Assembly (NCBI GenBank): GCA_902563095.1
Contig: CACEWA010000004.1
Coordinates: 114 to 64,113, forward strand
Source of the DNA: an uncultured Candidatus Poseidoniales archaeon
GTDB taxonomy: Archaea; Thermoplasmatota; Poseidoniia; Poseidoniales; Poseidoniaceae
Reading direction: 5' to 3'
Length of the DNA stretch: 64,000 nucleotides
The translations under genes were made by a program, and so were the position numbers. Position 1 is the first letter of the stretch. The number at the start of each line of letters is the position of its first letter. Below are positions 53,372 through 62,098 of the stretch, piece after piece. The notes beneath the pieces were generated by a model that searched no databases, was not told where the DNA came from, and saw only the letters and a program-made list of their open reading frames with translations.

Positions 53372-55543
53372 ATGAAATGGCAAAATAGCACCCGAGAGAA
53401 CCCCGTCTCCTGTCGGGAAAAAGATAGGGGGAAATTTGAGATCACTGCCCGTGATGGCCAGGCTAGACTTGGCCGATTACATACAACACACGGAATCGTA
53501 GATACGCCTTGCTTACTACCTGTGATCAATCCCAATATTCGAACAATAGAACCACGAGAAATGTGGGATAAATATGGCATTCAAGCTCTAATTACCAACT
53601 CATATGTAATTTGGAAACATGACAAATTGAAAGATGAAGCCATCAAAAATGGCGTGCACTCATTATTGGATTACCCCGGCATGATTATGACGGACTCCGG
53701 CACATTCCAATCATATGTATATGGTGATGTAGAAGTCGGTGTTGAAGAAATTGTACAATTTCAAAAAGACATAGGCGTTGATGTTGCCACCATGCTCGAT
53801 GTATTCACAAGACCCGATATGAAATTCTCTGAAGTAGAAAGTGCTGTTATGGAAACGCTAGACAGAGGGCGGATTTCAGTTGATACATCAAAGGATGTAA
53901 TGCTTAACGGTCCGATTCAAGGTGGATTGTTTTCCGATTTGAGAGCACTAAGTGCTAAAGAAATGAGTAAACTTGATTTCAGTGTCCACCCTATTGGAGG
54001 AATTGTTCCAATAATGGAGCAACAAAAATACAAAGATTTGGCAAAAATCATGCTAGCATGTAAATCTAATCTAGCACCAAATCGACCAGTACACATGTTT
54101 GGATGCGGCCATCCGATGCTATTTCCTATGCTAATCGCCATGGGCGCCGACTTGTTTGACTCAGCAGCATATGTTCTATTTGCTAGAGATGGGAGATTAT
54201 TGACACCATGGGGAACAGAAAAGATAGCCGATATCGAAGAATGGCCAATTCTTATGCCTTCAATTACCCATTTTTCTCCGTCTGATGTTCGTAAAATGAA
54301 CAAAGAAGAAAGAACGATTTTATTGTCAAAATACAACTTAGAAGTAACACTCCAAGAAATGTCGAGATGTCGACAAGCTGTCCGGGATGGAACAATCTGG
54401 AGGTTGGCGGAAAGGAGAAGTCACGAACATCCCGCACTTCGTGAAGCGTTTCTTTGGCTGACAACTAATCCCTCGAAGATGAAAATGCAACCATTAATTC
54501 TAGACGAAATTTCAGCATCCAAAGAAACCGGAAAAGAGAAAGGACGCTGGGAAGAGAATTGGGACTGGCTAGTTAATTCGCAACTTACACCTAGAGGAGG
54601 AGGGGAATCATGGGGAGGGAACGATACTCTAAACAGACCGCACATAGACATGGCAAAGAGAAAAATACTCTCAAGATGGTTATCAAGAAAATCAGGTGAT
54701 GTGATTCTGTTTCACGGAACAAGTGCCCCTTGGCGAGACAAAATTGGAGATTTAGTTGAACGGATTTGTTGGCTTGATTACGAGTTATTTATCCAGACAC
54801 CGATTGGAATTGTCCCTTGGGGTCTTGAAGATCTCAATCCATGGGCACATATCGAAGGCCCAAGCTGGTTGTGGAATAGTAAGCCAGATTTCAACAAGGT
54901 ACAAAACGAACTGGAACAATATGGCATTCATAATAGGAAAGTCATCCCTGTAGATATCTCAGACACAGAAGATTTGCACAAGCGAGTTTTCGAATTATTG
55001 GAAATCGAACCTACTGAGCGTAACCCAGATGATAAGAAGCGTTCCCAAATTGTTGACAAGTTATGCGTGTTGTGTAATGTCAAACAAAGTGAAGCGATTT
55101 CGATGTGTAAAGATGCTACATTTGTTATGAGCAGAACTGGAAGAATTAGAAATATGTTTGATTCAGAAGGCGAGCATTTGTTTTCCCCTAGATTAGCAGA
55201 AGGTGGGATTTCACTTACAGTAAATGGCGCTCGGAAATTACACCAATTACGAAATGAGAAAATACCTCAAGGATTCTCATCTGGTAAATTGATTAATCAT
55301 GTAGGCAAGGGGCCTGCGTGGATTGTTGTCGATGATGATGCGGCGCCTTTCGTCAAAGATGGTAGGAATGTAATGCATGGTTTCGTCATTGCATGTGACG
55401 AATGGACAAGACCGGGTGAAACTGTACTAGTGGTAAATTCATCTGGAGAACTTCTAGCAATTGGACGCTCCCAATCTACTCCGCAAGAATTTGCGACCTT
55501 TACAAAAGGAATTGCAGTAAAGGTCAGAGAAGGTTGCCCCTGA
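53372..55543 (+). CDS. tgtA: archaeosine tRNA-guanine transglycosylase homologue with C-terminal PUA-like domain (atypical, see findings)
   Basis: FEITARDGQARLGRLHTTHGIVDTPCLLPVINPN, MTDSGTFQ, HPIGGIVP, VHMFGCGHPMLFPMLIAMGADLFDSAAY. The C-terminal PUA-like end is GETVLVVNSSGELLAIGRSQ...GIAVKVREG. Confidence 0.8.
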   Translation: MKWQNSTRENPVSCREKDRGKFEITARDGQARLGRLHTTHGIVDTPCLLPVINPNIRTIEPREMWDKYGIQALITNSYVIWKHDKLKDEAIKNGVHSLLDYPGMIMTDSGTFQSYVYGDVEVGVEEIVQFQKDIGVDVATMLDVFTRPDMKFSEVESAVMETLDRGRISVDTSKDVMLNGPIQGGLFSDLRALSAKEMSKLDFSVHPIGGIVPIMEQQKYKDLAKIMLACKSNLAPNRPVHMFGCGHPMLFPMLIAMGADLFDSAAYVLFARDGRLLTPWGTEKIADIEEWPILMPSITHFSPSDVRKMNKEERTILLSKYNLEVTLQEMSRCRQAVRDGTIWRLAERRSHEHPALREAFLWLTTNPSKMKMQPLILDEISASKETGKEKGRWEENWDWLVNSQLTPRGGGESWGGNDTLNRPHIDMAKRKILSRWLSRKSGDVILFHGTSAPWRDKIGDLVERICWLDYELFIQTPIGIVPWGLEDLNPWAHIEGPSWLWNSKPDFNKVQNELEQYGIHNRKVIPVDISDTEDLHKRVFELLEIEPTERNPDDKKRSQIVDKLCVLCNVKQSEAISMCKDATFVMSRTGRIRNMFDSEGEHLFSPRLAEGGISLTVNGARKLHQLRNEKIPQGFSSGKLINHVGKGPAWIVVDDDAAPFVKDGRNVMHGFVIACDEWTRPGETVLVVNSSGELLAIGRSQSTPQEFATFTKGIAVKVREGCP

Positions 55544-55550
55544 AAGGGGC

Positions 55551-56543
55551 ATGTTCAAAGGCCCACCTTCATCTGTCTGTTTCATGGTAGAGGAGTTGAT
55601 TATCGAATCAACTGCTCTTACCAAATCTTACGGACCACATGTCGCACTTGATTCTCTGGACATCAGAATCGAAAGAGGCTCAACCGGTTTGCTTGGCCCA
55701 AATGGTGCCGGAAAATCCACATTCCTGAAAACAATGCTAGGATTAATCCAACTTACTTCAGGAGAAGGAAAGGTACTCGGGTTCGACATCCGAACCCAAG
55801 GCGATCAAATTAGACAGCGTATTGGTTACATGCCAGAATATGATGCATTGAATCCGAATATGGATGCGATTCATCAAGTGAGGTATAGCGGAGAATTGAT
55901 TGGAATGAACCCCAATATCGCGCTACAAAGAGCGCATCAAGCACTGGAGTATGTGGGATTGGGCGAACAGAGATATCGCGAAGTTTCTTCTTTCTCGACC
56001 GGTATGAAGCAAGCCACAAAATTGGCCTGTGCATTAATCCACGACCCTGCTCTGATTATTGCCGATGAGCCAAGTAACGGATTAGATGCACAAGCAAGAG
56101 AATTCATGCTGAATACTCTTGAAACCACCGTAAACCAAGGACAGAGGTCTGTTTTGATGGCATCTCACTTGATGGATGATGTAGAAAGGGTTTGTGAAAA
56201 TATTGTCTTGCTACACAAAGGCAAACTTGCTGCTCAAGGAAAAATTGACGACCTCAAAGCGATTGACAAAGAAATCGAAATTCACGTTTGGGGCTCTCCT
56301 GGAAAAATGGAAGAAACACTTACTGACAGAGGAATGAAGGTCAGGCGTGAAGGCCGAGTAATGAGAGTAGGGCATAATGGAGAAGGCAGCTATAATGAGA
56401 TCCTACAAGCAGCTGCGGACATAGGAACTCAAGTTCGCAGAATGCACGACCACGAGGCTAGTCTAGAAGATTTATTCTTGGTCATAATGGAACGACTTGG
56501 ACATGACGTCAAGACCAGTGATGACTTGTTAGGGGGTGCGTGA
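55551..56543 (+). CDS. ABC transporter ATP-binding protein (pair 1)
   Basis: Walker A GPNGAGKST, signature FSTGMKQ and Walker B LIIADEPSNGLD. The alternative start is ATG 55584. Confidence 0.85.
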   Translation: MFKGPPSSVCFMVEELIIESTALTKSYGPHVALDSLDIRIERGSTGLLGPNGAGKSTFLKTMLGLIQLTSGEGKVLGFDIRTQGDQIRQRIGYMPEYDALNPNMDAIHQVRYSGELIGMNPNIALQRAHQALEYVGLGEQRYREVSSFSTGMKQATKLACALIHDPALIIADEPSNGLDAQAREFMLNTLETTVNQGQRSVLMASHLMDDVERVCENIVLLHKGKLAAQGKIDDLKAIDKEIEIHVWGSPGKMEETLTDRGMKVRREGRVMRVGHNGEGSYNEILQAAADIGTQVRRMHDHEASLEDLFLVIMERLGHDVKTSDDLLGGA

Positions 56544-57593
56544 ATGTCTGAATCGGATACCGATGCAAATACGCCTTTCGAGCCTGTTGAATCTAAGGAA
56601 GAAACATTCGGAGCAGAAACACCAGTAACTGGACAAACCAAGATGCAGGCAGCTTGGTCTGCAAGTGATGACGACGCTAACTCGGCTCAAGTTGCTTCTG
56701 TGCCACAAGGACAAATTTTTGAGCAGATATACAAGCCATGGGAAGGCACTTTGAACCCGCGCTGGATGCGAAATTGGGCAATTTTGCGCCATCACATTTT
56801 AGGAATTTTCGCCAAAGGTCACCGGCCTTGGAATTTACCAACCAAACTTTTCATTTTCTTCGTAATTATTGCATCGATGACCGATGTGGCACTTGCCTTA
56901 TTGTTTGGCATGATTGGGGAACCTACCCTGTATGATATTTGGGGGGTCAATCGAGATAACTTGTACGGACATGTCATGGGATTTTTCCCACGAAATATTC
57001 TGTATTATCCAATCGTAGCTGCGTTATTAGTTGGAGGTATGATTTCTGAAGATAGATCGCATGGCACCAGCGCACTATACTTTTCTAGACCAATAAATAG
57101 GTTCGACTATGCCGCCATGAAATTCCTCTCTGTAGCATTGATTCTACTGTTTATTATCAATGGAACTTTGATGATATACTATTTCGTTGATATCTTGGTA
57201 ATGGGCAAAGGTTGGGCATGGATTATCGACACATTTCCAATGTTCATGGCTACATTTGTTTGCGGGATGATTCTGGCTTTTACCTACACATCGATTGGGC
57301 TTGCACTATCCAGTATTTCTCGAGGTAGATTCTTCCCCGCAATAGGCCTAATCGCGATTCTGATGGGTACACGTTCCATGGCAGCAATTATCGATGCACT
57401 ATTCGATAAATCATTGTTGTACATCATATCACCTTACGATGCAGTTGCGCATGTTTGCCAAGCACTAATCGGCACAGAAATGACATATGAGCACCCATGG
57501 GTTTGGAGTTTAATTTCAGTTGTCATCATGAATGGTTTGGCACTATACTTACTTGCAAATCGAGTTTCTTCGCTGGAGGTGACTAGGGAATGA
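56544..57593 (+). CDS. ABC-2-type permease-like membrane protein (pair 1), with ~75-aa acidic N-terminal extension
   Basis: The ATG abuts the upstream stop (TGAATG). There are six predicted TM helices after a hydrophilic N-terminus. Confidence 0.6.
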   Translation: MSESDTDANTPFEPVESKEETFGAETPVTGQTKMQAAWSASDDDANSAQVASVPQGQIFEQIYKPWEGTLNPRWMRNWAILRHHILGIFAKGHRPWNLPTKLFIFFVIIASMTDVALALLFGMIGEPTLYDIWGVNRDNLYGHVMGFFPRNILYYPIVAALLVGGMISEDRSHGTSALYFSRPINRFDYAAMKFLSVALILLFIINGTLMIYYFVDILVMGKGWAWIIDTFPMFMATFVCGMILAFTYTSIGLALSSISRGRFFPAIGLIAILMGTRSMAAIIDALFDKSLLYIISPYDAVAHVCQALIGTEMTYEHPWVWSLISVVIMNGLALYLLANRVSSLEVTRE

Positions 57594-58579
57594 TGCCCGA
57601 TGTAACACAGCATGGAACTGCAGAAACTACAGAATGGAAGCCTGTAGAGAACACTCCCGTAGTCATGTTCGACCGTGTTTCAAAATCATATGGTAGAATC
57701 AATGCAATGAATAGTGTTTCACTTGGAATTTCAGGTGGAGTAACAGGGATTTTGGGAATGAATGGTGCAGGTAAATCTACTCTTTTCAAATTAATGATGG
57801 GTAAAATCAAACCAAGTTCAGGAGCAATTAGGTTATTCGGCACGGACCCGTGGAAAAATCCTGCACCTTACTCACGCGTAGGATTTGTTCCTGAGCACGA
57901 AAAAATGTATGATTGGATGACTGCATTCGACTTCATTGTAACTTTCGCTAGACTTCACGGAATGACAAGAGAAGAGGCGAGTAAAGAAGCAACAAGAGTA
58001 CTGTCATTCGTTTCATTAGCAGATGTTATGCACAAAAGAATCGGTCAGTTTTCCAAAGGTATGAGGCAGAGGGTGAAAATTGCGCATGCATTGGTAAATG
58101 ACCCTGAATTGATTATTCTTGATGAACCATTACAAGGTTGTGACCCACTTGCACGAACCACTATCATGAACGTGATTAAGGAACTCGGGGCGATGGGTAG
58201 AACGGTTTTGGTTTCTAGCCATATTCTTCATGAGATTGAGAGAATCACAGAACAAATTGTAATTCTTCATCGGGGACGAATCCTTGCTCTAGGTAACTCT
58301 CATGCAATTAGAGAAATGCTGGACCAGCACCCACACAAGATTGAATTGGAATGTGACAATCCTCGAGAACTAGCCAAGAGTATGATCAATATCGGTGAAG
58401 TGACAGGAATGTCATTCGCAAGCTCTGACAAATTGCTAATCGAGACTCGACACTTGGGTGAAGTTCACAAAAAACTGCCACAAACAATCATTGATAGCGG
58501 CAGTAATGTCACAGCAATAGACAACCCTGATGATGACCTTCAATCGATCTTGATGTACCTTACAGGGGGTTCATTATGA
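57590..58579 (+). CDS. ABC transporter ATP-binding protein (pair 2)
   Basis: Walker A GMNGAGKST, signature FSKGMRQR and Walker B LIILDEPLQGCD. It overlaps the upstream gene by 4 nt. Confidence 0.85.
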   Translation: MMPDVTQHGTAETTEWKPVENTPVVMFDRVSKSYGRINAMNSVSLGISGGVTGILGMNGAGKSTLFKLMMGKIKPSSGAIRLFGTDPWKNPAPYSRVGFVPEHEKMYDWMTAFDFIVTFARLHGMTREEASKEATRVLSFVSLADVMHKRIGQFSKGMRQRVKIAHALVNDPELIILDEPLQGCDPLARTTIMNVIKELGAMGRTVLVSSHILHEIERITEQIVILHRGRILALGNSHAIREMLDQHPHKIELECDNPRELAKSMINIGEVTGMSFASSDKLLIETRHLGEVHKKLPQTIIDSGSNVTAIDNPDDDLQSILMYLTGGSL

Positions 58580-59895
58580 GCAATAGAATGGATACTATCT
58601 GGTCTAAACTTGACCGTAAATCCACTGCCATAGCAGAATTCACTATGCGGCAATACCGCACTCGGATTTCTACATGGGTTGTAATGATTGCATCCACTCT
58701 CGCATTATTCTTGATGCTATTATTCTACATCGAAGCCATGAACACTGAAATCGAAGCGATTGATAATGACGGTGATTCATTCGATTCTGATGGCGATGGT
58801 TACCCGGATGGCCAAGAGAGATTAGAAGGTACTAATCCGGATTCAGACGCTTCATTCCCTGATTGGGTCGAACCCGATCCTCCTGAAAAATGGATAAATG
58901 AAGATGACATTAATTGGGATGTATTAGGCGAAGGGGAGAATTATGTTGGAGAGGATGATGATGGCGATTGCACAAATCTCGATACTTCTAGTCAAAGGGA
59001 CAGTAATGACAACGACATGGAATGCGACATTATAGTGACTGTAGATTCACTCAATTCATCAATAACAGTAGATGCTGATTCGAATGTTGATGAGGACCCA
59101 GATGAAGAAAAATACGGCAAAGAAGCAGGACACAGGTCGTTCATTTTAGGCATCGGTAAATTTGGAATTGTATACCTCCTGGGTATTTTCCTCCCCCTTT
59201 TCTTAGCTACCGGATTGATTAGAGAAGAGATGTCTGAAGGTACAATTCACTATATGCTTGCTAAACCAATAGCAAGGGGTGAACTGTTGCTCTACAGAAT
59301 GCTAGGATACATCGGAATCACTTGGCCATTCATAATTTCAATCTGCGTCATTTTATGTTTAATCACAGGTTTCACTGGCCCAGGCGATGGATTCTTCCGT
59401 TGGTCTGACATTGGAGTTTGGATGTCGATAGCATGGGCTACGATGTTGGTTTCCTTAGTTTACGGTACCATATTTTGCGGGTTTGGAATAATTTGGAAAA
59501 ATGGCGTTATACTTGCGATAATTTTTGCTGCATGGGAGTTAGGTATGGCATTCGTTGCAATCTTTTCTGGAGGAGATTCGTCAATACGGTACATGTCGGT
59601 AATTGGGTGGGGAATGATCATTGTAGACGCAGGTGTAGCGATTAGTTGGCCCGATAATTGGCAATTAATCGAGATCGGTTTATGGGGCGGAGGACACGGA
59701 GAAGAAAACTGGCTAGGAGAAATTGCATATGTCGCACTTCCTGCAGCAGAGCCATTGGCTGGATTCAGTGGAAGTCCAAATCTCGGAGTTAGCAATTGGC
59801 TATCCTTCCTTATCTCAACATTAGTATTGGTGTTCCAAGGTGCCATGTCTTGGTTTATTGGACAGTCCATTTTCAAAGGCAAGGAAGTGGATTAA
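58576..59895 (+). CDS. ABC-2-type permease-like membrane protein (pair 2) with ~130-aa acidic extracytoplasmic insert
   Basis: It overlaps the upstream gene by 4 nt. TM1 (VVMIASTLALFLMLLFYI) is followed by DNDGDSFDSDGDGYPDGQE and further Asp-rich sequence, then about 6 TM helices. Confidence 0.6.
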   Translation: MSNRMDTIWSKLDRKSTAIAEFTMRQYRTRISTWVVMIASTLALFLMLLFYIEAMNTEIEAIDNDGDSFDSDGDGYPDGQERLEGTNPDSDASFPDWVEPDPPEKWINEDDINWDVLGEGENYVGEDDDGDCTNLDTSSQRDSNDNDMECDIIVTVDSLNSSITVDADSNVDEDPDEEKYGKEAGHRSFILGIGKFGIVYLLGIFLPLFLATGLIREEMSEGTIHYMLAKPIARGELLLYRMLGYIGITWPFIISICVILCLITGFTGPGDGFFRWSDIGVWMSIAWATMLVSLVYGTIFCGFGIIWKNGVILAIIFAAWELGMAFVAIFSGGDSSIRYMSVIGWGMIIVDAGVAISWPDNWQLIEIGLWGGGHGEENWLGEIAYVALPAAEPLAGFSGSPNLGVSNWLSFLISTLVLVFQGAMSWFIGQSIFKGKEVD

Positions 59896-61022
59896 TGTCA
59901 GAATCGCAGAAATTCACAGGCGATTTGTCAAGCCTGTGGAAACTGCAAAACCTACCACCTATCCATCATTTGACTTGGGATTGGTGGTGGTGGCTCGTTA
60001 TGTTGGACGATGAGGGAGGGAATCCTGCTGGGAAGCAATTGATGGTGCTATGGTCTACCAAGGATAACCCATTGGTTGAAGTCAATGGCCATCCATGGAA
60101 ACCGGTTGGAAGACCAGGTTTTGATGAGGATGGAGGCATAGCAATGGATGGTATGGTTGCAGCATGGTGGTATGATGGACACAAGTTGATTGAGCCATTA
60201 ATTTTGGAAGAAAGTAGGATTATTGTCGTCTCTGAAGAGCATTCTGATTGGCCGTATCAAAAAGGCGGAATCGTAGCATCGCACACCGAAAATGAATATT
60301 CGATGGGGCTTAATCCTGAAGAAAATGAATTTTGGCTCAAATTGGAAACTGAACACGGCGACTTTAATTTGAAAATGCAACCTTGGAATGACGCAATGTC
60401 TAGCATGAAGGTCGCACAAGCTGAATATGGACTTGGAATGGGATATGGGATCTCAAGATTACATGGAGCATTATGTACCGGAGAAATCGATGGGAAAGAG
60501 GTTGAAGGTTCAGCATATTTTCAGAAAGTGTGCGTTCAAGCACCTTCACCTCCATGGTTTTGGGGCATGTTGCATTTGGACGATGGCTCATATATCGACT
60601 GGTTTTTGCCACATCTTTCTCCAACACTTACAGCCAAAGATTCGCGCCATTGGAAAAAAAGGGACATTACGCATTATCCATTGTCTATGGGCGGATTGTT
60701 CCATGATGTAAATCGTCAAAGAAGTGAAAGATTTAGTGAAGTAAGAGTTGAAAGAACTTGCAATGAACATGGGCTTCCAACTTTTCATGTGCACATGTGG
60801 AATGGCGTAACTGAAATCCGGATTGAAGCCAAAGCAGTAACTAGAGCTCATTGGACATTTGACCAACCAACAAGGGGTGGAATGAAATCACACCTAACTT
60901 ACAACGAATATCCATTGGAGGTCACTAAATTAGAAATTGATGACGAACAAGGGATACGTACTCGCAAGGATTGGGGTACTATCCGAGGGAATGCAGAACA
61001 CTCTTGGGGCCTACTACATTGA
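59895..61022 (+). CDS. Trp-rich soluble protein, AttH/CrtC/tocopherol-cyclase-like (lipocalin-type fold) candidate
   Basis: ATG 59895 overlaps the upstream stop (TAATG). The motifs HHLTWDWWWWLVMLDDEGG and EGSAYFQKVCVQAPSPPWFWGMLHLDDGSYIDWF resemble the G.aY.EK.W....P..WFW / WdWf..hLdDG blocks of these families. This is recognition from memory only. Confidence 0.45.
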   Translation: MSESQKFTGDLSSLWKLQNLPPIHHLTWDWWWWLVMLDDEGGNPAGKQLMVLWSTKDNPLVEVNGHPWKPVGRPGFDEDGGIAMDGMVAAWWYDGHKLIEPLILEESRIIVVSEEHSDWPYQKGGIVASHTENEYSMGLNPEENEFWLKLETEHGDFNLKMQPWNDAMSSMKVAQAEYGLGMGYGISRLHGALCTGEIDGKEVEGSAYFQKVCVQAPSPPWFWGMLHLDDGSYIDWFLPHLSPTLTAKDSRHWKKRDITHYPLSMGGLFHDVNRQRSERFSEVRVERTCNEHGLPTFHVHMWNGVTEIRIEAKAVTRAHWTFDQPTRGGMKSHLTYNEYPLEVTKLEIDDEQGIRTRKDWGTIRGNAEHSWGLLH

Positions 61023-61078: not shown

Positions 61079-62098
61079 TTGATGTCCGACGAGGAACTAT
61101 CATCTGAGACCGCTGAAGAAAGTAATTCAACACTAGAAACCGAAGAACCTACAGAACCTGTTTCAAACAGTAATTCACTGATTGAGAAGTTCCGACTTAC
61201 TGGTGACGAAGAGATTTTGAAAGATGTTAAACCATCAATTTTCGCCTTTGTACCAATGTATATTGTTTCACTAATTATTCTCGGAGCGCATATGTTGTTT
61301 GCAATAGATTGGGATGCCAGCAGTGATGATAATTTCCTTGTCAAAACTATGGTTTTCTTGATTGAGTTATCGGATATTGGCGAGATCGGCTTCGTTCTAG
61401 TAATGTTGGGTGTTGCTTGGTTTAACAGAATGTTGAATGGAACTACTAGCGGCAAGTGGACCACTATTTTCTTGTTGATAGTTGCTTTAACTCCACCTGT
61501 GTTGAGGCTGGATGATTTCATCGCATGGATCATGAATAAAGATTCTGGATTTATTCCACTAGATGAATTCAGTTACTCATTATTCGGAATATTCTGGGCT
61601 GCACTCTTCACTTTGTTCACGGTGTTCTACCAAAGAAGTTTCCACTATGCAATCACAAACCACAGAGTGATTTTTACTCAGCACTTAATCATCCCAGGAG
61701 ATGGAAGAAGGATTCTTTTCGATAATATCAACGAGATTAGAACTCAAAGAACCATGCTAGGTGCGATGTTTGGATACAACACAATCATTTGCGATACTGG
61801 AAGCCAATTGGGAATTGGCGAAGACGCAATGTCTGTCTCAGTAGGTACTGCCGGAGGTAATTCAGGGGAGAGCACTAATGCTGAAGGTCAAGTCACTAAG
61901 AGTTTGTTCAAGAAAATGTTCGCATTCATAACTTATCAGAGGTCCAGAAAGATCGATCTTCCCGACCCAAGATTCTCTTTCTTCTGCATCACAAACTGGA
62001 AGTCTATCGAGCAACTTTTGAATGAAATGCATCAAAGACATAGCCAATCTGGAATTCTAAACGATTTGAAAGACCAAATCGCAGAATCTCAAGATTGA
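61079..62098 (+). CDS. hypothetical membrane protein with bacterial-PH (YdbS/DUF304-like) segment
   Basis: Acidic N-terminus and about 5 TM helices. The segment QRSFHYAITNHRVIFTQ...ILFDNINEIRTQR is typical of bPH_2-type domains. Confidence 0.45.
   Translation: MMSDEELSSETAEESNSTLETEEPTEPVSNSNSLIEKFRLTGDEEILKDVKPSIFAFVPMYIVSLIILGAHMLFAIDWDASSDDNFLVKTMVFLIELSDIGEIGFVLVMLGVAWFNRMLNGTTSGKWTTIFLLIVALTPPVLRLDDFIAWIMNKDSGFIPLDEFSYSLFGIFWAALFTLFTVFYQRSFHYAITNHRVIFTQHLIIPGDGRRILFDNINEIRTQRTMLGAMFGYNTIICDTGSQLGIGEDAMSVSVGTAGGNSGESTNAEGQVTKSLFKKMFAFITYQRSRKIDLPDPRFSFFCITNWKSIEQLLNEMHQRHSQSGILNDLKDQIAESQD

Follow-up and report, generated by a model that had tools for sequence, protein, structure and literature searches.

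CrtC of Rubrivivax gelatinosus and Thiocapsa roseopersicina (PF07143), which has an aromatic-rich barrel, hydrates lycopene without any cofactor (PMC3145076, PMC4717167). Its residues His239, Trp241, Tyr266 and Asp268 are essential, and the aspartate has been proposed to protonate the double bond of the substrate (PMC4717167). AttH of Agrobacterium fabrum C58 (WP_010974398), encoded by the last gene of attEFGH on the plasmid pAtC58, and NE1406 of Nitrosomonas europaea (2ICH) are of the same superfamily and form a double beta-barrel, and an archaeal AttH-like protein, the hydroxy-GDGT synthase Hgs, hydrates double bonds of glycerol dialkyl glycerol tetraethers (GDGTs) (bioRxiv 10.1101/2025.10.20.683597). 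Here we describe a protein of 375 amino acids, referred to as X, that is a remote relative of these proteins and is encoded directly behind a putative four-gene ATP-binding cassette (ABC) exporter in an archaeon of the order Poseidoniales (Marine Group II, MGII). The genes lie in a window of 64,000 nucleotides, the whole stretch of DNA that was analysed (contig CACEWA010000004.1, positions 114 to 64,113), and occupy positions 55551/55584 to 61022 of its forward strand in the order ATPase-permease-ATPase-permease-X. We think, with moderate confidence, that they are one unit in which an exporter of the ABC-2 type works with cytoplasmic X, which would bind and modify, or hand over, a lipid of the isoprenoid type.

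Hgs comes from a Guaymas Basin scaffold related to Ca. Bathyarchaeota, its gene overlaps that of the B12-radical-SAM desaturase ted, and its homologs are reported mainly from Methanobacteriota and Bathyarchaeota (bioRxiv 10.1101/2025.10.20.683597). Like X, Hgs is archaeal, soluble and AttH-like, and since it acts on the isoprenoid chains of membrane lipids, the AttH-like fold is in use for archaeal lipid tailoring. Hgs is the only archaeal AttH-like function described in the literature that we found, and it differs from X in gene context and distribution. X has no radical-SAM partner: no radical-SAM gene is present in the block from 52.9 to 63.5 kb, and no such family recurs near X in 25 other loci. 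The two proteins are compared here by context and description. A literature search returned no paper linking Poseidoniales with AttH, CrtC or lipocalin-like proteins.

Protein X and the AttH/CrtC superfamily

The gene for X runs from 59895 to 61022 on the forward strand. Its product is rich in tryptophan (21 residues, 5.6%), has a pI of 5.5 and, by hydropathy, contains neither a signal peptide nor a transmembrane (TM) or other hydrophobic segment, in agreement with a preliminary description that had been made from the sequence without database searches. That description had also proposed a likeness to AttH, CrtC and tocopherol cyclase on the strength of two blocks, WDWWWWLVMLDD at residues 28-39 and GSAYFQK...PPWFWGMLHLDDGSYIDWF at residues 205-237. 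Curated models do not recognise the protein. Pfam and NCBIfam gave no meaningful match, and Pfam-A at E≤10 returned only a chance zinc-ribbon hit, with nothing for CrtC, Lipocalin_9 or tocopherol cyclase (PF14249). None of 29 close and 70 diverse relatives of X matched Pfam or NCBIfam, profiles of the X family matched no PDB sequence, and the PF07143 and PF17186 models found nothing in the whole genome, though controls responded. HMMER, run against all of 1.84 billion representatives with a limit of E≤1e-3, gathered an X family of 286 clusters at 50% identity. Hits with a named source are all archaeal, coming from Poseidoniales, other Thermoplasmatota, Diapherotrites, Aenigmatarchaeota, a metagenome-assembled genome (MAG) of Halobacteriota and Hydrothermarchaeales, and all of these hits are labelled 'hypothetical'.

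The relationship to AttH and CrtC is seen in the predicted fold and in comparisons between profiles. The AlphaFold2 model of X (pLDDT 87.9, pTM 0.89) is all-beta with two barrels, and its best match in the PDB by Foldseek is 2ICH, the putative AttH NE1406 (probability 1.00, E 2.1e-9). Twelve further matches follow, to the AttH-fold fungal Diels-Alderases Fsa2, Phm7 and CghA and to 7DMO pericyclases, and beyond these 13 hits no other fold was found at E≤1e-3. The fungal enzymes (7E5T, 7E5U, 6KAW, 7DMO) have the two-barrel fold and a length similar to that of X, which they match at E 1e-6 to 1e-4 with TM-scores of 0.43-0.52 and 8-10% identity; they are, however, eukaryotic, lie within polyketide synthase-nonribosomal peptide synthetase (PKS-NRPS) clusters and catalyse their reactions without an acid residue of the CrtC type. 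In hhalign, an alignment of 70 X-family sequences was compared with one of 28 verified CrtC+Lipocalin_9 proteins (12 rhizobial AttH and 16 archaeal CrtC-domain proteins, the latter taken from Thermoplasmatota genomes and the attH gene from pAtC58), which gave a probability of 96.8% (E 2.8e-10, 179 columns); against the single AttH sequence the probability was only 8%. The aligned blocks of the X family and of AttH/CrtC are, respectively, GTAYFQKV and GxAWLDREW, PWYWGxxHFxDGS and GWDWFxLHLxxG, and YNEYP and PYWEGP. The two motifs on which the preliminary description had relied align with the EWWY and GxAWLDREW...GWDWFxLHL blocks of AttH. Its AttH/CrtC comparison is supported at the level of fold and profile, whereas hmmscan, the check that it proposed, gave no match to CrtC, Lipocalin_9 or tocopherol cyclase. 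On the profile-profile homology and the AttH-like predicted fold we assign X to the AttH/CrtC superfamily as a remote homolog, on an uncatalogued archaeal branch beyond the reach of curated models. The archaeal family defined in this way, with about 290 clusters at 50% identity, is missed by the domain libraries now in use.

AttH and X are alike in gene position, each closing a run of ABC genes in which neighbouring frames overlap or abut, and the attEFGH arrangement that the preliminary description named is indeed found on pAtC58. In other respects they differ. AttH matches CrtC and Lipocalin_9 at 1e-62 and 1e-41 (210 and 141 bits), whereas X matches neither even at E≤10; the N-terminus of AttH is a hydrophobic signal sequence, and its annotated name is 'predicted secreted hydrolase', whereas X is cytoplasmic; and AttH is accompanied by ABC_tran and FtsX/MacB_PCD genes, a system of the FtsX/MacB type, whereas the partner of X is of the ABC-2 type (ABC2_membrane_2). 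Neither D226 nor E60 of AttH is retained in X. Because the type of ABC system and the location of the protein are different, and because intermediate lineages lack the linkage, the suggestion that AttH and ABC genes have been linked since ancient times is unsupported. CrtC, for its part, is set apart from X by the PF07143 model, to which X has no match, and by a carotenoid gene context, which X lacks.

The residues conserved in the X family bear on its chemistry. The sole nearly invariant aspartate of the AttH/CrtC alignment, D226 of AttH in an aromatic-x-Asp motif, aligns at high column confidence with Q210 of X, which is at least 90% conserved among 70 family members; D226 is equated with D268 of R. 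gelatinosus CrtC by motif and position. Of the CrtC motif Y266-x-D268 the tyrosine is kept in X, as Y208, while the position of the essential aspartate is occupied by glutamine. Glu60 of AttH, in the EWWY motif, corresponds to tryptophan or aspartate in the WWWW motif of X, and the glutamate of YNEYP/YWEG is common to the two. About 18 residues are at least 90% conserved in the X family although its members are only 20-30% identical, and the conserved polar set consists of Q48, D94, Y208, Q210, Y336, E338, N366 and E368. With glutamine in place of the conserved aspartate any catalysis by X must rely on other residues, for which the nearly invariant D94, Y208, Y336, E338, N366 and E368 are candidates. 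Judged by this alignment, X is probably not an Asp-driven hydratase of the CrtC type, and would either use another acid or be no hydratase at all. The replacement of the presumed catalytic aspartate may widen the chemistry known for the AttH-like fold.

All characterised relatives of X bind hydrophobic chains, namely carotenoids in the case of CrtC, a prenyl group in kievitone hydratase, GDGT chains in Hgs and polyenes in the Diels-Alderases. For this reason we infer that X also binds a long hydrophobic chain, isoprenoid or other.

Some genomes carry more than one member of the family. Two X paralogs stand in tandem in one locus (L064, G080:C22, 9115-11385), and six other Thermoplasmatota genomes (G003, G011, G015, G022, G026 and G089) have 2-3 X matches each, some of them fragments. 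Canonical CrtC-domain proteins also occur in Thermoplasmatota, in families f15 and f21 (L077, L081, L084, L091 and L096), within frames of 750-890 amino acids; these are much longer than AttH and are probably fusions with another domain.

The exporter, the five-gene unit and its history

The four genes in front of X encode two pairs of an ABC ATPase and an ABC-2 permease, as had been proposed before any search was made. ATPase 1 (55551-56543, with a probable true start at 55584) matches ABC_tran at 4.6e-26 (92.5 bits) and is drrA-subfamily-like, and ATPase 2 (57590-58579) matches the same model at 1.3e-28 (100.8 bits); permease 1 (56544-57593) and permease 2 (58576-59895) match ABC2_membrane_2 at 5.4e-9 (36.1 bits) and 8e-13 (48.7 bits), both over the cut-off of 27.2. 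All are on the forward strand. Walker A, signature and Walker B motifs read GPNGAGKST, FSTGMKQ and LIIADEP in ATPase 1 and GMNGAGKST, FSKGMRQ and LIILDEP in ATPase 2, and the two ATPases are 38% identical over 208 amino acids (BLASTP). Among solved structures their nucleotide-binding domains are closest to ABCA4, ABCA3 and ABCA1 (about 1e-53), followed by NosF and Rv1218c. They also match the drrA, GldA, NodI and PmtA/PmtC models of NCBIfam, and permease 1 weakly matches PmtD and GldF, all far below the equivalog cut-offs.

The permeases scarcely resemble each other, and neither matches a solved chain. Hydropathy gives permease 1 an N-terminal cytoplasmic extension of about 95 amino acids and 5-6 TM segments; its close orthologs (50-65% identity) are confined to Poseidoniales, and four-gene clusters elsewhere hold more distant ones. 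Between TM1 and TM2 of permease 2 lies a loop of about 140 amino acids (nucleotides about 58732-59163) that consists to 32% of aspartate and glutamate, has a pI of 4.05 and contains one TSP3_bac repeat, of the Ca-binding type, just above the Pfam cut-off (25.2 bits against 25). This loop is the acidic ectodomain that the preliminary description had noticed on one permease. In clusters outside Poseidoniales permease 2 has only 250-345 amino acids and hence lacks the loop, which would therefore have been acquired in the Poseidoniales lineage. In three of these clusters (L107, L109 and L113, of families f13, f6 and f18) permease 1 has 560-630 amino acids and permease 2 only 280-345, so that the large extra segment is on the opposite permease from that of Poseidoniales. 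From their sequences, genes 1-4 encode a predicted heterotetrameric ABC-2 exporter (type V, ABCA/DrrA/NosFY-like) of two different ATPases and two different permeases. The alternating order of ATPase and permease is common also to PmtABCD of Staphylococcus, an exporter of phenol-soluble modulins. An identity with that system fails on score, with 105-109 bits for PmtA (cut-off 350), 92-100 for PmtC (375) and 18 for PmtD (220), and gene order alone is shared. Neither PmtABCD nor NosFY, DrrAB or the eukaryotic ABCA lipid exporters have a cytoplasmic AttH-like partner.

The five genes are joined by junctions of 0, -4, -4 and -1 nucleotides. The TGA stop of ATPase 1 (56541-56543) is followed immediately by the ATG of permease 1 at 56544, the next two junctions are ATGA overlaps (57590-57593 and 58576-58579), and permease 2 is joined to X by TAATG (59893-59897), all as first described. 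A G-rich element resembling a Shine-Dalgarno sequence can be read 5-8 nucleotides 5' of every internal start (GGGGGTG, GGAGGTGA, GGGGGT and GGAAGTGGA, in order). The earlier conclusion that these junctions imply stoichiometric co-expression is not supported. The four consecutive junctions, each of 0 nucleotides or less, are the tightest run of the window; but 94% of the window is coding and 22 of its 42 same-strand junctions (52%) are of 15 nucleotides or less, so tightness alone is no proof of stoichiometric coupling.

Comparison across the order adds to this. In 17 Poseidoniales loci permease 2 and X are separated by a median of 9 nucleotides (range -4 to 27), while the flanking spacers are wider, with a median of 72 and up to 286 nucleotides on the side of the upstream gene tgtA (16 loci) and a median of 66 on the side of the downstream bPH gene; for permease starts in family f2, where the longest-ORF coordinates show overlaps, the spacer estimate is unreliable. 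A conserved motif of approximate consensus RGCATTCAARG, read here as GGGGCATGTTCAAAGG at 55546-55561 of the forward strand, precedes the start of ATPase 1 by a median of 39 nucleotides. Its core, TT[CG]A[AT][AG][GA], is present 20-75 nucleotides before the start in 42 of the 57 Poseidoniales leaders of L001, L043-L057 and L116-L156, against 3.0 in shuffles. A genome scan showed that the motif is not a repeated or dispersed element, and no Rfam family matched the leader. Its position is that expected of a promoter of the BRE/TATA type; k-mer counts in upstream regions carried too much noise to tell whether the motif is the generic TATA-like box of this organism. By position and conservation the motif may be the operon promoter or the binding site of a regulator. 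Tight internal junctions, wider flanking spacers and the conserved leader motif together point to a unit that begins at ATPase 1 and ends after X, and so support the reading of 55584 (55551) to 61022 as one transcription unit.

The five-gene order is conserved well beyond this genome. A block of nifU-like gene, tgtA, ATPase, permease, ATPase, permease, X, (bPH), TPR gene and truA was found in 20/20 Poseidoniales loci, in both families of the order, and X is present in all 64 sampled Poseidoniales genomes. None of the eight genomes of the sister family f3 has X, and 25 of 229 other Thermoplasmatota have it. In a maximum-likelihood tree the Poseidoniales X sequences form one clade (support 100/100), whose stem is long (1.58 changes per site) and which splits by family. 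The ABC cluster has a distribution of its own: relatives of permease 1 are detected by profile in 137 of 301 genomes, and clusters free of X keep orthologs of ATPase 1 and ATPase 2 in the same order. One module can be present alone, since family f18 has the ABC cluster without X, and families f22 and f7 have X without the ABC cluster. The four-gene ABC module predates Poseidoniales, and its pairing with X is fixed across that order, with none found elsewhere. Because Poseidoniales X is monophyletic, X and the ABC module would have been joined once, and the simplest history suggested by the tree and the gene orders is that two older, independent modules met in the ancestor of Poseidoniales. Outside the order, permease-1-like genes occur in 14 of 25 X-bearing genomes and in 61 of 212 others; we reject this co-occurrence as evidence of partnership, as it is modest and confounded by phylogeny and genome size.

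One ABC cluster outside Poseidoniales has neighbours of another kind. In L110 (G015:C47, 4635-11239) the four-gene cluster is directly followed by a GHMP kinase with a mevalonate-kinase-like N-terminus and a UbiD-family decarboxylase. These are candidate genes of the archaeal mevalonate pathway, and this one locus gives the ABC module an isoprenoid setting.

Proposed cooperation between X and the exporter, and rival readings

According to the reading that we favour, the gene for X was inserted once behind an older exporter in the Poseidoniales ancestor and has been retained in every sampled genome, and permease 2 would have gained its acidic external loop of the Ca-binding type in the same order. 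At the cytoplasmic face of the membrane the aromatic-lined barrel of X would take up a long hydrophobic chain, isoprenoid or other, and X might alter a C=C bond in it by hydration, isomerisation or cyclisation, or might just pass the lipid on; the exporter would then move the lipid to the outer face. A more specific form of the same idea is a pathway specific to Poseidoniales. In it the substrate of X would be an isoprenoid lipid of the membrane or envelope or a polyprenol carrier, which X would remodel by chemistry other than that of CrtC, since glutamine replaces the catalytic aspartate, and the exporter would place the product on the cell surface through its Ca-binding external loop. We consider this form unlikely.

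Several observations weigh against the favoured reading, and most of them suit a rival, in which X works in the cytoplasm by itself, as an enzyme or a binding protein unrelated to the exporter, and is co-transcribed with it through the packing of a streamlined genome, in an arrangement that was never disrupted. In 25 loci outside Poseidoniales, including those of DPANN and Halobacteriota MAGs, X adjoins no ABC gene, and clustering of the neighbours in these loci revealed no family common to more than three of them. Families f3 and f18 have the four-gene ABC cluster but no X, and in the X-bearing families f6, f13 and f16 the cluster and X are not linked, which implies that the cluster works without X in other lineages. 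These same loci speak against an ancient linkage of the two. The entire neighbourhood from tgtA to truA is equally frozen in Poseidoniales, so that the unrelated housekeeping genes in it (nifU-like, tgtA and truA) are as syntenic, in 20/20 loci, as X is, and tight junctions are standard in a window so densely coding. That X just happens to be packed behind the exporter is a serious alternative, though not one that we would call probable. The junction between permease 2 and X does not exceed 27 nucleotides in any of 17 loci while both flanks of the unit have spacers of promoter size, a promoter-like motif marks the start of the unit, and X was inserted once, diverged fast on its stem and became fixed in 64/64 genomes, in the same lineage in which the loop of permease 2 appeared. 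If the packing explanation were true, the locus would be a clean example of order-level synteny mimicking functional linkage.

Further points against the favoured reading concern the nature of X: the TM-scores of the X model to known structures are just 0.45-0.52, the glutamine found at the AttH/CrtC aspartate position in at least 90% of the X family makes acid catalysis of the CrtC type doubtful, and X could be non-catalytic. A lipocalin-like carrier that shuttles or presents a hydrophobic molecule unchanged would agree with the calycin-like double barrel, the loss of the family's conserved acid and the lack of a cofactor-binding domain. We regard it as rather unlikely, because the 18 or so strongly conserved residues, many of them polar, in a family of such low overall identity look more like an active site than a greasy pocket. 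A true CrtC-type hydratase of carotenoids or other isoprenoids, adding water to a terminal C=C bond, for example of lycopene in the retinal pathway or, as Hgs does, of an unsaturated archaeal lipid, can appeal to the fold and remote homology, to the retained tyrosine Y208 of the aromatic-x-acid motif (Y266-x-D268 in CrtC, PMC4717167) and to the archaeal precedent of Hgs (bioRxiv 10.1101/2025.10.20.683597). This, too, is decidedly improbable: the essential D268 (PMC4717167) falls, by way of its presumed counterpart AttH D226, on the near-invariant Gln210, E60 of AttH is tryptophan or aspartate in X, PF07143 does not match, neither crt genes nor radical-SAM neighbours like ted recur, and the family extends to MAGs of Aenigmatarchaeota and Diapherotrites. 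A chromanol cyclase like tocopherol cyclase, suggested in the preliminary description by the look of a Trp-rich motif alone, is hardly credible when Pfam at E≤10 yields a single chance hit and the top structural and profile matches are to AttH/CrtC.

In the surface ocean the uncultured Poseidoniales rank among the most abundant archaea. Almost no archaeal ether lipid is detectable in Marine Group II cells (PMC8473941). An AttH-fold gene that is present throughout the order and tied to a lipid-type exporter can be cloned and offers a candidate for the tailoring or export of lipids in Poseidoniales, and a lipid pathway specific to these archaea, if real, would open a first way to the lipids of Marine Group II.

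The ATPase 1 start, leader hairpins and flanking genes

The gene upstream of the unit, at 53372-55543 on the forward strand and outside the unit, is tgtA, for the archaeosine tRNA-guanine transglycosylase; its product has TGT, TGT_C2 and PUA domains and matches TIGR00432 at 442.6 bits, over the cut-off of that model. The ATG at 55551, with which the longest open reading frame of ATPase 1 begins, reads ATA or ACA in two genomes of the same genus (L116 and L117), whereas the ATG at 55584 (MVEELII...) is kept in all same-genus genomes compared. From this comparison ATPase 1 probably starts at 55584, 11 codons later, which makes the spacer to tgtA 40 nucleotides rather than 7.

A hairpin, GCCCCT-gaa-AGGGGC at 55536-55550 of the forward strand, spans the tgtA stop codon as the preliminary description had stated, but it does not lie just before the start of ATPase 1, as was also stated: it precedes the ATG at 55584 by 34 nucleotides and is not at the ribosome-binding site. 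It has a predicted free energy of -14.7 kcal/mol in a 41-nucleotide context (z -1.7). Perfect 6-bp hairpins with loops of 3-5 nucleotides are frequent in the window (75, against 51 in shuffles), and the hairpin is therefore unremarkable by count. It is identical in 4/4 same-genus genomes although the flanks differ, and it is not present at this place in other genera, which rules it out as an order-wide element and makes it specific to the genus. Its 5' arm encodes the Cys-Pro-stop of tgtA, and its 3' arm shares sequence with the G-rich head of the leader motif; since the arms serve these two ends, the conservation of the hairpin may be a mere by-product of both constraints.

Downstream of X, at 61079-62098 on the forward strand, lies a gene for a membrane protein with an acidic N-terminus, four hydrophobic segments and a weak match to bPH_2 (4.6e-4, 20.8 bits, under the Pfam cut-off of 22). 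A bPH relative is detected 3' of X in most Poseidoniales loci and is absent from the ABC clusters outside the order. The gene is probably a unit separate from the five-gene run, and may be a further lineage-specific addition.

Leaders of other Poseidoniales have features of their own. In many genomes of family f2 (L046-L048, L050, L134-L139 and L156) a hairpin, GACTCCC-NNN(N)-GGGAGTC, lies between the motif and the start codon, and other f2 genera have different stems with a 3-nucleotide loop in the same place (GATTC-ATA-GAATC and CGCGTCC-TAT-GGACGCG); judged from these stems, the hairpins look like a covarying structure of the 5' untranslated region (5'-UTR). The 286-nucleotide spacer between tgtA and ATPase in L049 (G258:C10) contains direct repeats of about 70 nucleotides from the 3' end of tgtA (GGGGCGGCATCAGTAGTTGA...GAAGGTCA). 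In L002 (3418-3666) tgtA is broken into products of 610 and 82 amino acids, while two near-identical contigs, one of them that of L003, have it intact at 688 amino acids; the split in L002 is a frameshift or an assembly error.

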